The notes below the pieces were generated by a model that searched no databases, was not told where the DNA came from, and saw only the letters and a list, made by a program, of their open reading frames with translations. Below are positions 26,791 to 37,151 of a stretch of 50,906 nt of DNA, one piece after another; the stretch's first letter is position 1, and each line of letters starts with the position of its first letter. A program made the translations under genes and the position numbers. The DNA lies in assembly GCA_945877805.1 (NCBI GenBank), contig CAMCSM010000006.1, positions 1-50,906 on the forward strand, given 5' to 3'. Source of the stretch: Methylacidiphilum caldifontis. Its GTDB lineage: Bacteria > Verrucomicrobiota > Verrucomicrobiia > Methylacidiphilales > CAMAQI01.

Positions 26791-28110
26791 ATGAAATCGA
26801 TTCCCTCTTCCCAAAATACGGCGCTTACTTTTTTATCCGTGCTCTTTCTCCTTGGTGGCTCGCTCTTGATGCTTCCTTTTGGCCGATTGAACGAATTTGG
26901 AACGGTCCCCTATTTTTTACTTGGGGCCCTCGCTCTTTGTTTTGGTTTTGTTTGTAGCTGGCAAATTTCAACCCTCTCCCCAACAGTTTTTTGGGGAGCT
27001 GCAATCCTTACTCGGCTCTTACTCCTTTGGCAGGTTCCTGGAGATGATATCTATCGCTATGTCTGGGAAGGCCGAGTCCTTCTCTCCGGAATCAATCCTT
27101 ATCTTCATGCTCCGGATTCATCGATTTTAGAAGATCTTCGTGATATCGTGTGGAAAGCGGTTGAATACAAAGGCGTCACGGCGATTTATCCGCCGTTGAC
27201 TGAATTTCTCTTTGCATTTTTTTCATTCCTTTCACCGACTCCTTTCTTTTTTAAAGTTATCTTTGCATCTGCCGATATTGCGATTCTTTATCTTCTCACG
27301 CGCGAGTTTGGCCAAAAAGAGGCGCGACTCTATGCGTGGAACCCCCTGGTGATCTATTGCTTTGCAGGAGGGGGACACTACGACAGTCTCTTTATTCTTG
27401 CATTGGTCATTGGGTGGCTTAGCTATCGAAGAGAGAGAATCATTCTTGCGGCCCTTTTCATCGGAGTTGCGATTGCCTTAAAGTGGATTGCACTTTCCCT
27501 CGCTGGTTGGATTCTTTGGCGAACCCTTTATTCAAAACAGTATCGAGCGATCCTCCCGATCCTCCTTGCTCTTTCCTTGCCGATGATCGGCTCATGGGTC
27601 TTATTAAGTTTTTGGACCGATGAATGGACCTTTCAGATCTTCCCGAAACAGTTCACTCAATACGTGAGAAGCGTTGAATTCATTCCCGCAATCGTGGGGC
27701 ATTTCTGGAAGGAGAGTTTAAAACACAATGATTGGTTTCTCATCCCGCTGGCTCTCTTTTGGCTGGTAGCGATCCTTCGGTCACGAAGCTATGAAGGAGC
27801 GATCGAATGGATTTTCTTTCTCCTCTGGATCTTCTCGCCAATGATGCATGCGTGGTACTTTACCTGGATCATTCCCTTTGCGGTTCTCACTCGTAATCGG
27901 GGATCGATTGCGATTTCGATCAGTGGCTTTTTCTATTTCTCGATCCATCACTACTTTCAATCTCCTGGGGGTCAATGGGCACTCCCCCCACAAGTCGCTT
28001 TTTTAATGTGGTCGCCATTGATCTTAGGATTTTTATGGTCGACGGGAACCGTTCCAGTAAATCAGAGTTTACCTCAGAAGAACAGAGAGGGTGTAAATGA
28101 GGTTAGCTGA
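26791..28110 (+). CDS. GT-C fold membrane glycosyltransferase (GT87/DUF2029-like)
   Basis: GDDIYRYVWEG..NPY, IYPP, WNPL, GHYD, H.WY; multiple TM helices. Confidence 0.85.
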   Translation: MKSIPSSQNTALTFLSVLFLLGGSLLMLPFGRLNEFGTVPYFLLGALALCFGFVCSWQISTLSPTVFWGAAILTRLLLLWQVPGDDIYRYVWEGRVLLSGINPYLHAPDSSILEDLRDIVWKAVEYKGVTAIYPPLTEFLFAFFSFLSPTPFFFKVIFASADIAILYLLTREFGQKEARLYAWNPLVIYCFAGGGHYDSLFILALVIGWLSYRRERIILAALFIGVAIALKWIALSLAGWILWRTLYSKQYRAILPILLALSLPMIGSWVLLSFWTDEWTFQIFPKQFTQYVRSVEFIPAIVGHFWKESLKHNDWFLIPLALFWLVAILRSRSYEGAIEWIFFLLWIFSPMMHAWYFTWIIPFAVLTRNRGSIAISISGFFYFSIHHYFQSPGGQWALPPQVAFLMWSPLILGFLWSTGTVPVNQSLPQKNREGVNEVS

Positions 28111-28164
28111 TGTCCTATTAAAAACAAAAAAAGAAAGTCAATTGAATAGGGAAATCATGAAAAA

Positions 28165-28776
28165 ATGAAAATTCGTGCCGCGCTTCTCTTAAAGGCACCG
28201 ATCTTAGGAACGGTCAAAACGCGACTTGCCGCCTCTTTGGGAGGCGAGGAGGCAAAGCGAATCTACATTCAACTCGTGGAGTGGCAGCTTTCACAGATCC
28301 CTGACTCTTGGGGGATTGATATTCACTTTGCCCCCTCAACTGCCCTGAAGCAGATGGAGGAATGGATCTCACCTCTCAAAACCCAAAAGATTTCATTTTT
28401 TTCACAACCGGACGGAGATCTTGGAGTTCGATTAAGCGTAGCACTCCAAAACTCATTCTCCCAAGGAGCAGATCGAGTTGCCCTGATGGGAGGGGATTGT
28501 CCTGAACTAACATTCCACTATCTGCAAATCGCTGAGGAGTTTTCGATTTCATTTGATGCCACCATTGCCCCCGCTCTTGATGGGGGTTATGCTCTCTTGA
28601 TTTTGAATCAATACTACCCCTCACTTTTTCAAAACATTCCATGGAGTACATCCATAGTTTTTTCGGATACCAAGCAGGCAATGAAAAATCTTGGACTCAA
28701 AGTTCATGATCTAGCGGTTGTTGAAGATATTGACGACCTTGATTCATTTCAACGAAGTCGCCTCAGAAGCGGGTGA
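28165..28776 (+). CDS. TIGR04282/DUF2064-type arsenosugar-associated GT-A (CofC-like) protein
   Basis: K.P..G.VKTRLA, Q..GDLG.RL, G.DCP, PA.DGGY, IPWST, DID..D. Confidence 0.9.
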   Translation: MKIRAALLLKAPILGTVKTRLAASLGGEEAKRIYIQLVEWQLSQIPDSWGIDIHFAPSTALKQMEEWISPLKTQKISFFSQPDGDLGVRLSVALQNSFSQGADRVALMGGDCPELTFHYLQIAEEFSISFDATIAPALDGGYALLILNQYYPSLFQNIPWSTSIVFSDTKQAMKNLGLKVHDLAVVEDIDDLDSFQRSRLRSG

Positions 28777-28833
28777 TCGATCCCCTCATTCACTTCCCAC
28801 TGCATTTGTCGCAACGAAAAATATACGATAAAG

Positions 28834-35030: not shown

Positions 35031-35037
35031 CGCCATT

Positions 35038-36159
35038 ATGATAACCCTCATTATTTTCTCACTCGTACTCATTCTCGCATTCATGAACGGCGCCAATGAC
35101 AATTTCAAAGGAGTCTCAACTCTTTATGGCAGTAAAGTCACTACCTATAAACAAGCCCTCACCTGGGCCTCCATCACCACTTTTCTCGGAAGCCTGACTT
35201 CGCTTTTCCTTGCTCAAGCCTTAATCGTTCGATTTTCAGGAAAAGGACTCGTCGATGAATTAGTCTCTACCTCTCCCTACTTTGTTATTGCTGTAGCCTT
35301 AGGAACGATCATTACGCTCGTTCTCGCCACTCGCTTCGGCTTTCCTATTTCCACAACCCATGCTCTTTTAGGATCGCTCATCGGAGTAGGACTCATTTCA
35401 AATTCTTCTCTCTTTAATCTCACCCTTCTCTCTCAAAAATTTATTTTCCCCCTTCTCTTCACTCCTATCCTCTCCGCACTTCTAGCTTCGCTTGTTTTTG
35501 GACTCACCTCCATTTTTAAAAACTTCCTTCTTCCGTCTGAGCCTCATTGCATTTGTCTTCATTCACGCATCCCTTTTTGGGCGCTCTCCCCCTGTTGTCA
35601 AAATTCCGCTCTTCCGCATCCATCGATCGATCTGCAAATCGAATCTCCCTCCCAATGCAATTCAATAAGTGCCCCCCCCTTAGCCCGAATCGTACTCCCC
35701 TCTCTCATCGATTCTCTTCACTTTATCAGCGCAGGAGCCGTCTGTTTTGCTCGCGGACTCAATGACACTCCAAAAATAATGGGGCTACTACTCTTATCCT
35801 CCGCGCTTTCCATTCAACACTCCATCATGATGATCGCCATCGCAATGGTGATGGGAGGGATTATAGGAGGAAGAAAAGTCGCTGAAACAACCAGTCAACG
35901 CGTGACCTCCATGAATCCTCGCGAAGGATTATCCGCAAATCTTTCGACTGCCCTTCTCGTCACCACCGCAAGTCTCCATGGTCTTCCTGCAAGCACGACG
36001 CATGTGACCATCGGAGGGCTCATCGGAGTAGGCTCCATTACAAAAAAAATGCACTGGAAACCGGTGCTTGGAATTTTAACTTCTTGGATCCTCACACTTC
36101 CTTGCTCTCTCTTTTTTGCTGCCCTGAGCTTTTATCTCCTTCAAAAAAAACATTTATGA
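35038..36159 (+). CDS. PiT-family inorganic phosphate transporter
   Basis: NGANDNFKG, PISTTHA, GLND.PK, P.STTH; Cys-rich central insertion. Confidence 0.92.
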   Translation: MITLIIFSLVLILAFMNGANDNFKGVSTLYGSKVTTYKQALTWASITTFLGSLTSLFLAQALIVRFSGKGLVDELVSTSPYFVIAVALGTIITLVLATRFGFPISTTHALLGSLIGVGLISNSSLFNLTLLSQKFIFPLLFTPILSALLASLVFGLTSIFKNFLLPSEPHCICLHSRIPFWALSPCCQNSALPHPSIDLQIESPSQCNSISAPPLARIVLPSLIDSLHFISAGAVCFARGLNDTPKIMGLLLLSSALSIQHSIMMIAIAMVMGGIIGGRKVAETTSQRVTSMNPREGLSANLSTALLVTTASLHGLPASTTHVTIGGLIGVGSITKKMHWKPVLGILTSWILTLPCSLFFAALSFYLLQKKHL

Positions 36160-37151
36160 AATCAACTCCACTTTCCTCTTCTGTTTCTCTCTTTGAGAAA
36201 ATCCTTCAAAAAAACAATCTCACTATTTCACGCACAAAAACTGAAATCCTTCAAATTAACGTCGGAAAACTTTGTAACCTTACCTGCTCTCATTGTCATG
36301 TAAACGCAGGTCCCAAACGTCAGGAGATCATTCAGCGAGAGACGATCGATCGTATTCTCGAATGGCTCCGCAAAACGGAGATCGCAACGGTCGATCTTAC
36401 CGGCGGTGCACCAGAAATGATCCCTGACTTTCAATATTTAATTCAACAACTTCGATCTCTCCCAAAAGTCAAAACGATCATCGACCGATGTAATCTCACC
36501 ATTTTAAACGAACCGGGATATGAGTGGCTTGCTCCATTTCTTTTAGAACATCGCCTTGAAATCGTTGCCTCCATGCCTTGTTACTCTGCCGCCAATGTGA
36601 ATGCTCAGCGCGGAGAGGGAGTTTTTGATTCTAGTATTCTTGGACTACAAACATTAAATCGACTCGGTTACGGTAAAGAAGAATCCTTGCCACTTCACCT
36701 CGTCTATAATCCTGGAGGTCCCTTTCTTCCTCCGGATCAAAAAGAATTGGAGTCCGATTATAAACGAGAACTTAAAACTCATTTTGACATTATTTTCAAC
36801 CAACTTTTTGCAATCACGAACATGCCGATTTCGCGTTATAAATCATGGCTTAAAAATAACGGTCATCTGGAGTCCTATATGTCCCTGCTACGAGATTCCT
36901 TTAATCCCGCCTCGATTTCAGGATTGATGTGCCGCAATACCATCAACATCGGTTGGCAAGGAGAGGTTTACGACTGCGATTTCAATCAGCAACTTGGCAT
37001 GCAATGGAAAGTGGAAAAACCACGATTGCTGTGGGAGATTGATCCGCAAGAAATCGAGCAACACCCCATTGCATTTGGGGAACACTGTTTTGGCTGTACC
37101 GCCGGTTGTGGCTCCTCCTGCCAAGGAGTCCTTGTCGAGAGTTCATTCTAA
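36156..37151 (+). CDS. arsS: arsenosugar biosynthesis radical SAM protein
   Basis: LQINVGKLCNLTCSHCHV.AGP, DLTGGAPE, ASMPCY, QRG.GVF, LMCR, YDCDFNQ, HCFGCTAGCGSSC.G. ATGA overlap with the PiT stop. Confidence 0.93.
   Translation: MKSTPLSSSVSLFEKILQKNNLTISRTKTEILQINVGKLCNLTCSHCHVNAGPKRQEIIQRETIDRILEWLRKTEIATVDLTGGAPEMIPDFQYLIQQLRSLPKVKTIIDRCNLTILNEPGYEWLAPFLLEHRLEIVASMPCYSAANVNAQRGEGVFDSSILGLQTLNRLGYGKEESLPLHLVYNPGGPFLPPDQKELESDYKRELKTHFDIIFNQLFAITNMPISRYKSWLKNNGHLESYMSLLRDSFNPASISGLMCRNTINIGWQGEVYDCDFNQQLGMQWKVEKPRLLWEIDPQEIEQHPIAFGEHCFGCTAGCGSSCQGVLVESSF

Follow-up and report, generated by a model that had tools for sequence, protein, structure and literature searches.

Arsenosugars and arsenolipids dominate arsenic in aquatic food webs. 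ArsM homologues methylate As(III) and, to our knowledge, only the ArsM and ArsS steps of the arsenosugar pathway have been shown, the route from 5′-deoxy-5′-dimethylarsinoyladenosine (DDMAA) to arsenosugars and arsenolipids being a question as old as the proposal of the pathway itself. The subject here is a nine-gene cluster at positions 26791-37151 of contig CAMCSM010000006.1 (assembly GCA_945877805.1, Methylacidiphilum caldifontis), which joins arsM and arsS to genes for putative sugar activation and transfer. The window, meaning the whole 50,906-nucleotide stretch that was analysed, is one entire 50.9-kb contig of a Verrucomicrobiota metagenome-assembled genome (MAG) of 2.94 Mb that is 96% complete. 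ArsS homologues adenosylate dimethylarsenite to DDMAA (PMC13598754). Like the cyanobacterial arsenosugar pathway, the window has ArsS and TIGR04282 above their curated cut-offs together with an ArsM-like enzyme. It differs in that TIGR04283 is missing and a family 2 glycosyltransferase (GT2) resembling dolichyl-phosphate (Dol-P)-sugar synthases is present instead, with a GT-C membrane glycosyltransferase; in a separate clade of phosphorylase resembling methylthioadenosine phosphorylase (MTAP), a pair of a flavin adenine dinucleotide (FAD) protein and a NapH-like protein, and a PiT transporter with a Cys triad, all of which it adds; in an ArsM that matches best an arsinothricin-type model and lies under all cut-offs; in its Verrucomicrobiota host; and in the nucleotidyltransferase-like fold of its TIGR04282 protein.

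The known system closest in logic to the route proposed below is the methylthioxylose (MTX) capping of lipoarabinomannan in Mycobacterium tuberculosis. In its early steps, methylthioadenosine is converted by MTAP to methylthioribose-1-phosphate and then to a nucleotide sugar, followed by epimerisation. MtxS (Rv0539) forms MTX-P-C50, and MtxT (Rv0541c), a GT-C (PMC3229680), moves MTX onto the caps (PMC8780516; PMC12088412). The shared logic is that a 5′-substituted adenosine gives a lipid-linked 5-substituted pentose through a GT2, which is then transferred outside the membrane by a GT-C; the substituent here would be dimethylarsinoyl instead of methylthio. Candidate genes for four of the five MTX functions (MTAP, nucleotidyltransferase, epimerase, GT2, and GT-C) are present and linked in this locus, and an epimerase-like gene is adjacent, not conserved. 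The likeness is one of pathway logic, not of sequence comparison with the mycobacterial proteins, and we know of no FAD/NapH pair in the mycobacterial MTX cluster. Pairs of polyprenyl-phosphate sugar and GT-C (decaprenyl-phospho-ribose/arabinose, PimE, ArnC/ArnT, Emb/Aft) likewise depend on a GT-C that uses a lipid-phosphate sugar, and PimE, ArnT, Emb, and AftA/B are among the best folds for the window GT-C. The decaprenyl-phospho-ribose/arabinose pathway uses phosphoribosyl pyrophosphate (PRPP), whereas the donor in the window is proposed to come from nucleoside phosphorolysis and activation by a nucleoside diphosphate (NDP) rather than from PRPP or one of the common NDP-hexoses.

An open reading frame (ORF) check and hidden Markov model scans reproduce the coordinates and family signals that a preliminary description of this DNA had given for the nine genes:
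26791-28110, + strand: GT-C membrane glycosyltransferase, PimE/GT87-like (GT87 22.7 bits, cut-off 25)
28165-28776, + strand: TIGR04282/DUF2064 protein (TIGR04282 150.3 bits, cut-off 134; DUF2064 78.4 bits)
28834-29616, - strand: MTAP-like nucleoside phosphorylase (PF01048 89.3 bits; likely start Met5 at 29604)
30199-31572, - strand: NapH-like polytopic membrane protein carrying two 4Fe-4S motifs of the ferredoxin type (TIGR02163 68.3 bits, cut-off 213; Fer4 families)
31592-32944, - strand: NAD(P)H-dependent FAD oxidoreductase, Pyr_redox_2 (PF07992 178.9 bits; PF00070 54 bits)
33130-34275, + strand: ArsM-like As(III) S-adenosylmethionine (SAM) methyltransferase (NF040538 341 bits; PRK11873 204.9 bits)
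34248-35030, + strand: GT2 of the dolichyl/polyprenyl-phosphate-sugar synthase type, inside the arsM-arsS operon (PF00535 36 bits)
35038-36159, + strand: PiT-family transporter with a CxC...C loop (PF01384 211 bits)
36156-37151, + strand: ArsS radical SAM enzyme (TIGR04167 440.3 bits, cut-off 300)

The explanation favoured here, which we hold to be about evenly poised between right and wrong, is that 26791-37151 is a single horizontally acquired unit that makes an organoarsenical sugar and passes it via a lipid carrier to the envelope. ArsM would methylate As(III) and ArsS would adenosylate dimethylarsenite to DDMAA, both steps being shown for homologues. The MTAP-like phosphorylase would then remove adenine from DDMAA to leave 5-deoxy-5-dimethylarsinoyl-ribose-1-phosphate, the CofC/FbiD-like TIGR04282 protein would convert this arsenoribose-1-phosphate to an NDP-sugar, the GT2 would load the arsenic sugar from the NDP onto polyprenyl phosphate, and the PimE-like GT-C would pass it to an acceptor at the periplasmic face, with the flavoprotein/NapH-like unit serving the GT-C branch. 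The overall route is plausible but unproven. Arsenic is favoured as the substrate here because the GT2 lies inside the arsM-arsS operon in this and five other loci, because every ArsS genome has TIGR04282 (12/12, a descriptive count in 250 Verrucomicrobiota genomes, the same for each component, among which kin are not independent), because no sampled member of the phosphorylase clade lies outside an ArsS context, and because DDMAA is closely analogous to methylthioadenosine. A more specific claim, advanced tentatively and with more doubt than confidence, is that some Verrucomicrobia fix an arsenic-bearing pentose on an envelope lipid or glycan via polyprenyl-phospho-arsenoribose, with a dedicated DDMAA phosphorylase (Cys84, Gln186, Cys188) and with TIGR04282 as NDP-arsenosugar synthase.

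The arsM-arsS operon

The ArsM-like protein scores under every curated cut-off (NF040538, 341 vs 500; PRK11873, 204.9 vs 263; NF038099, 130.6 vs 400). Its best model, NF040538, is of the arsinothricin type, and the match is split by an insertion at about residues 131-162. The SAM-binding fold is recognised (Methyltransf_31, 105 bits), and the translation contains Cys23/24, Cys47, Cys174, and Cys226, which we take to be equivalent to the catalytic cysteines of characterised ArsM. ArsS reaches 440.5 bits in the genome-wide search, has a C-terminal Cys-rich DUF3641 domain (183.8 bits), and carries the radical SAM motif CX3CX2C as CNLTCSHC. Its gene has no in-frame stop and thus encodes the Cys form, not the selenocysteine form. 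The most likely start is ATG 36156, in an ATGA overlap with the PiT stop; TTG 36084 is unlikely. From its family membership, the window ArsS is predicted to make DDMAA. Its relatives are nearly all from Verrucomicrobiota, the closest two coming from MAGs at 96% and 90% protein identity.

The tight coupling that had been ascribed to arsM-GT2-PiT-arsS is borne out by overlaps and gaps of a few nucleotides (nt): arsM and the GT2 gene overlap by 28 nt, or are separated by 5 nt if ATG 34281 is the GT2 start, the GT2/PiT gap is 7 nt, and PiT and arsS overlap by 4 nt. A window-type GT2 also lies between arsM and arsS in five other arsS loci (L004, L005, L007, L011, L016). This arrangement bears on a rather unlikely alternative, in which the locus holds two neighbouring modules with no relation to each other: arsM-PiT-arsS would handle arsenic, yielding DDMAA or a simple arsenosugar, and TIGR04282, GT2, GT-C, and FAD-NapH would add a non-arsenical sugar to the envelope. 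One candidate sugar would be a 5-methylthio- or 5-deoxy-pentose derived from methylthioadenosine or 5′-deoxyadenosine, comparable with the mycobacterial methylthioxylose cap. A GT2 whose frame overlaps or nearly touches its neighbours within the arsM-arsS operon, in the window and in those five loci, argues against this separation, as does the presence of TIGR04282 in all 12 ArsS genomes; the evidence that favours it comes from genomes without ArsS and is given below with their distribution.

ArsM is the commonest partner of arsS, occurring within 10 kb of it in 43 of 80 loci. This count is what speaks for a reading that we consider very improbable, in which only arsM matters, through methylation and volatilisation as detoxification, and its neighbours are accidental or decaying. 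Against it, all nine frames are open and densely packed within 26791-37151, the gene order is retained in L004 and L005 at 77-98% protein identity, and the genes are bound together by fusions and phyletic patterns.

PiT genes linked to ars genes are found in 5/80 arsS loci and in two further genomes (G189 and G176). The Cys triad (CxC...C) in the central loop is present in all eight PiTs inside arsM/arsS clusters (window, L006, L007, L018, L019, L063, L098, L101), the group to which the comparison was confined, and could be a candidate binding site for trivalent arsenic. The import of arsenate that the preliminary description assigned to PiT is a putative role.

As the preliminary description had noted, the window holds no arsR, arsC, acr3, or arsB. 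In the 96%-complete genome as a whole, neither ACR3 nor ArsB was found, ArsC-like matches occur only on contigs C129, C78, and C61, and ArsR-family matches only on C83 and C129. The cluster is therefore not a classical ars resistance operon, in a genome without an ACR3 or ArsB match and with its ArsR- and ArsC-like genes on other contigs, and the reading of it as biosynthetic or transforming is supported. On C129 (327-1137), an ArsR-family regulator precedes a low-molecular-weight-phosphatase-type ArsC-like gene (80 bits, cut-off 174), and C124 (1735-2481) encodes an MIP channel that is 59% identical to aquaglyceroporins of arsS loci. Several genes that recur beside arsS are missing from the window cluster, including DUF547 (13/80), DedA/VTT (7/80), and MIP channels (7/80), as well as an extracytoplasmic function sigma factor with a putative anti-sigma factor (e.g., L025, L030, L034, L041). 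DedA proteins are linked to polyprenyl phosphate recycling, and given this role DedA neighbours of arsS would fit a lipid-carrier route.

The phosphorylase and the proposed glycosyl transfer relay

The phosphorylase is the sole MTAP-family match in the genome, with 155.8 bits against TIGR01694 (MTAP; cut-off 274.85, not reached). In a tree of 23 rows (the window, 2 from arsS loci, and 20 picked from 100 genomes with an MTAP-family match), it falls in a clade of six (window, L005, L060, G035, G242, G249) with support of 100/99 and a branch of 2.18. All six members, from at least four taxonomic families, adjoin TIGR04282 in ArsS loci or genomes; this six-of-six origin argues against unrelated modules. 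The clade is marked by Cys84 and by Gln186-Thr-Cys188 where Gly-Met-Thr is usual. The window protein keeps GSG and PRHG..H, has Ser-Gln-Thr-Cys for Gly-Met-Thr and Ala for the second Asp of DYD; these motifs presumably correspond to the phosphate and ribose loops.

The reverse comparison, in which the clade alignment was scanned against metagenome contigs (28 loci), gives the same picture. Genes of the system are adjacent in 10/12 relatives with at least 47% identity (TIGR04282 in 7, TIGR04283-like in 4, FAD-NapH in 3, and ArsS in 3), and they are nearby in 0/7 relatives at 42-44% and 0/9 at 37% or less, both groups being counted as outside the clade. One relative, L132, lies among pentose-phosphate genes. 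In L128 and L130, a single strand carries DUF547-ArsS-ArsM-like-FAD/NapH-phosphorylase-TIGR04282, an order that also speaks against two unrelated modules. The phosphorylase step of the preliminary description is thus backed by a dedicated MTAP-like clade adjoining TIGR04282, and the enzyme is proposed to cleave adenine from DDMAA.

The TIGR04282 protein matches PDB entry 3cgx by sequence (4e-21), and its structure model has a predicted local distance difference test (pLDDT) score of 96.9. Fold matches are led by 3cgx and continue with 3-phosphoglycerate guanylyltransferase (7p97), FbiD (6bwh), and CofC (2i5e), these three with template modelling (TM) scores of 0.65-0.78, and then with GlmU, RmlA, and IspD. 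CofC (TIGR03552) also matches the TIGR04282 half of a fusion protein in L094 (1e-7). CofC, FbiD, and the guanylyltransferase differ from TIGR04282 in sequence (15-22% identity) and in setting, since the gene context here is glycosyl transfer, not cofactor F420. The motifs KAPxxGxVKTRL, GGDCP, and DGGY are invariant. From its model, the protein looks like a nucleotidyltransferase for a phosphorylated substrate rather than a glycosyltransferase, which suggests that "glycosyltransferase" in the family name is a misnomer.

The GT2 lies below all curated cut-offs (AglJ, 88.7 vs 325; Dol-P hexose transferase, 46 vs 375; PpgS, 38 vs 370) and reaches 31.9 bits against TIGR04283, short of the cut-off of 182. 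A PDB sequence search gave weak N-terminal GpgS matches alone, and the ESM Atlas returned only generic family names for the GT2 and for the NapH-like protein. The GT-C has no match in a PDB sequence search. Its AlphaFold model (pLDDT 89.6, predicted TM score 0.91) is closest to PimE (9dm5; TM 0.55/0.61, E 7e-4), followed by GPI mannosyltransferase I, ALG6, ArnT, Emb, and AftA/B; PimE, GPI mannosyltransferase I, ALG6, and ArnT use polyprenyl- or dolichyl-phosphate-sugar donors. Asp86, Arg89, Tyr90, and Glu93, in the acidic motif of the first outer loop, and YPP at 133-135 are invariant in 16 homologues. On the strength of this fold, the GT-C is predicted to take its sugar from a polyprenyl-phosphate donor and to place it on an acceptor at the outer face of the membrane.

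Gene fusions connect these proteins. The window proteins were compared with the 80 arsS loci, with label-free clustering of all locus ORFs and domain mapping. The initially unnamed family that is most often beside arsS is TIGR04283. A window-type GT2 is N-terminally fused to a GT-C in seven loci (L020, L028, L054, L076, L084, L085, L086), in which the GT2 part is 45-55% and the GT-C part 35-41% identical to the window proteins. In 11 further loci, a more distant GT-C carries a TIGR04283-like GT2 at its C-terminus. The fusion partner of TIGR04282 is TIGR04283 in five loci (L094, L098, L101, L102, L103) and a window-type GT2 in one (L100). From these fusions, the GT2 probably works with the GT-C, which would use its lipid-linked product. 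The relay of the preliminary description, CofC-like activation followed by GT2 and then GT-C, thereby gains support from a chain of fusions and from the TIGR04282 and GT-C folds.

The same data bear on an improbable alternative in which arsenosugars or arsenosugar-phospholipids are made in the classical cyanobacterial manner: TIGR04282 and the GT2 would act in the cytoplasm, independently of a polyprenyl carrier, to form a glycerol or glycerolipid riboside, and the GT-C and redox pair would serve another purpose. NCBI names both TIGR04282 and TIGR04283 "arsenosugar biosynthesis glycosyltransferase", and in strict runs Synechococcus elongatus is the control genome above the cut-off for TIGR04167 and TIGR04283; for TIGR04282 it is among two matching control genomes, one of which is above the cut-off. 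A TIGR04283-like gene is present in 10/12 ArsS genomes, and the GT-C is missing in 4/12, which also fits this alternative. However, the present genome lacks TIGR04283 (best match genome-wide 60 bits vs the cut-off of 182), the GT2s of both types are fused to GT-Cs (window-type in the 7 loci and TIGR04283-like in the 11), and GT-Cs of the same fold use lipid-phosphate-sugar donors.

The redox pair and the module beyond arsenic

The flavoprotein gene is 19 nt upstream of the NapH-like gene. In translation, the NapH-like protein has Cys motifs of the CX3CP type and of the ferredoxin type, and its N-terminal 160 residues match nothing. The two genes are also paired in L004, L005, L007, L008, L011, and L050, and L020 encodes an 893-amino-acid (aa) FAD-NapH fusion, which belongs to a cluster of five loci. 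The best explanation of this gene arrangement is that the two proteins form a single NAD(P)H-fed membrane iron-sulfur redox unit of the GT-C branch; arsinoyl reduction, redox tailoring of the lipid-linked sugar, and electron transfer to quinone are possibilities for its chemistry. The preliminary description had the pair keep arsenic trivalent, which is not its best-supported role: the GT-C is present wherever the NapH-like protein is (13/13 genomes), and ArsS is missing from 6 of these 13. Because the pair tracks the GT-C rather than ArsS, it is tied to a generic module and not to arsenic reduction. A role as electron donor to ArsS was also considered and is less likely, given that the pair tracks the GT-C even where ArsS is missing and that the ArsS reaction is described as redox-neutral (PMC13598754).

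The components are distributed over the 250 Verrucomicrobiota genomes as follows (genomes with a match):
ArsS: 12
TIGR04282: 25
GT-C: 17
NapH-like protein: 13
TIGR04283-like protein: 19

The GT-C accompanies ArsS in 8/12 genomes, and TIGR04282 is present in 17/17 GT-C genomes and 19/19 TIGR04283-like genomes. The accessory genes are not specific to arsenic. Four genomes that are 99-100% complete (G001, G165, G180, G213) carry TIGR04282, GT2/GT-C, and FAD-NapH with no match to ArsS (E≤1e-30), ArsM (1e-15), or an Rv1681-like radical SAM enzyme (1e-10). A non-arsenical substrate is therefore within the reach of the downstream module, which may use one here too. In G180 (L084, 5201-14651) and G213 (L086, 5255-14711), the GT2-GT-C fusion and TIGR04282 lie beside a DegP-like protease, an OmpR-type regulator with a histidine kinase, and a second GT87-like gene, a gene neighbourhood which suggests that the stand-alone module there is under an envelope-stress regulon. 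Judged from gene content, the downstream module (TIGR04282, GT2, GT-C, and FAD-NapH) is a generic one that is here wired into the arsM-arsS operon.

A second variant without ArsS is found in L094 (G071), L101 (G176), L102 (G104), and L103 (G140), and at G070:C1:330213-332851. Its members are DUF547, an Rv1681-like radical SAM enzyme, an ArsM-like methyltransferase of about 34% identity, a peroxiredoxin/SelL-like protein, DedA/VTT, a MerA-like flavoprotein, and the TIGR04282-TIGR04283 fusion.

The alternative of two unrelated modules draws on the four genomes with neither ArsM nor ArsS, including the envelope-stress context in G180 and G213, on the NapH-like protein following the GT-C instead of ArsS, and on the absence of ArsS from 9/17 GT-C genomes and 13/25 TIGR04282 genomes. 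Those four genomes and these absences also weigh against the favoured reading of one arsenic-processing unit, together with several further points. Most family scores (ArsM, GT2, GT87, MTAP, and NapH) are under curated cut-offs; the product, substrate, and acceptor of the route are predictions from genes and models; and the non-independence of kin genomes means that co-occurrence counts overstate the support. The phosphorylase, as the only MTAP-family gene of the genome, may have a housekeeping role, and 8/25 TIGR04282 genomes have no MTAP-family match of at least 120 bits. Within 10 kb of arsS, the GT-C is found in 8/80 loci, the GT2 in 12/80, TIGR04282 in 16/80, and the phosphorylase in 2/80, many of the loci being short. 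Of the preliminary interpretation, the biosynthetic character, the relay, and the phosphorylase step are supported, and the arsenic specificity of the accessory genes and the role given to the redox pair are weakened or lack support.

Chromosomal setting and significance

GC skew, followed over 23000-42000, is positive in both flanks and falls to zero or below at about 26.5-37 kb, independently of gene strand. This pattern is compatible with insertion of the segment, or with its inversion relative to replication, and the departure agrees with the cluster borders given previously. None of five genomes of the same order has ArsS, TIGR04282, GT-C, NapH-like, TIGR04283-like, or MTAP genes. A synteny search for an empty insertion site in same-order genomes found an SBP5 gene alone in common, and the flanks of the cluster have no match in L154, L155, L004, or L005. 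The island borders are taken from GC skew alone because synteny gave no empty site. The skew, the absence from same-order genomes, and the co-occurrence of the genes fit the acquisition of the nine-gene cluster as a single unit.

Other features of the window are the following:
25942-26775, + strand: RmlD/epimerase-like short-chain dehydrogenase/reductase (RmlD_sub_bind 40.7 bits), 15 nt upstream of the GT-C gene
29605-30198, no strand: intergenic spacer of 594 bp with short dispersed repeats, outside the conserved cluster
9327-10340, 21615-22955, 23446-25350, 39945-41855, and 42332-44977: ordinary flanking genes

The RmlD-like gene was considered as a conserved pathway epimerase and rejected, being found in 0/80 arsS loci and 0/5 same-order genomes. 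It sits in a flank of positive GC skew and is a possible local add-on whose membership in the cluster is unsupported. The spacer contains three repeats (about 29772-29843, 29933-30007, and 30029-30067), and copies of them, each about 70 bp long and 84-92% identical, lie on C1, C26, C115, C98, C75, C16, and further contigs. None of the compared loci matches the spacer, not even L004 and L005, the closest relatives, and a DNA contig of run X7 omits its segment 29774-29844. An 83-aa ORF at 29657-29908, in this repeat-filled spacer and with no Pfam hit, is probably spurious. A scan of 25000-38000 against Rfam (E≤0.1) gave zero matches, and promoter and terminator scans were not above shuffled sequences (10 vs 15.8 expected and 16 vs 14.0, respectively). 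The surrounding genes are ordinary chromosomal ones, encoding MoaA, a MiaB-like methylthiotransferase, NAD synthase, a Ser/Thr kinase with an HDOD domain, and a GH63-like hydrolase.

Short contigs from one RNA library match the window at 93-97% identity on the MTAP-like, NapH-like, flavoprotein, arsM, and GT2 genes, and one of them spans the flavoprotein/NapH-like junction. They are a weak hint of expression, DNA carry-over being possible. RNA-library run X18 has no contigs over the GT-C, TIGR04282, PiT, or arsS genes, from which it does not follow that they are silent. In DNA runs labelled lake water and riverine, contigs of about 94-95% identity span GT2-PiT-arsS.

The link of ArsS with TIGR04282 and TIGR04283 is already contained in NCBI family names and is not new. 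What is new is the fusions of TIGR04282 with GT2 and of GT2 with GT-C in two architectures, the FAD-NapH fusion, the TIGR04282 and GT-C folds, the MTAP-like clade, and the phyletic pattern. Literature searches returned no paper proposing phosphorylase, nucleotidyltransferase, GT2, or GT-C steps for arsenic, found DUF2064 and the TIGR numbers only in unrelated surveys, and gave nothing relevant on a phosphorylase acting on dimethylarsinoyl adenosine.

For the later stages of arsenosugar synthesis, which have long been missing, the cluster and its relatives offer candidates that can be tested, naming four cloneable proteins in order (phosphorylase, nucleotidyltransferase, GT2, and GT-C), an order that the fusions support. 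In freshwater Verrucomicrobia, a generic module for envelope glycosylation, equipped with a redox unit of its own, would be coupled to arsenic chemistry, and the end point would be an unexpected one, in which a lipid carrier serves to fix arsenic in the bacterial envelope. If true, this would be the arsenic counterpart of mycobacterial methylthioxylose capping, and the phosphorylase and TIGR04282 would also be the post-DDMAA steps of arsenosugar synthesis generally.

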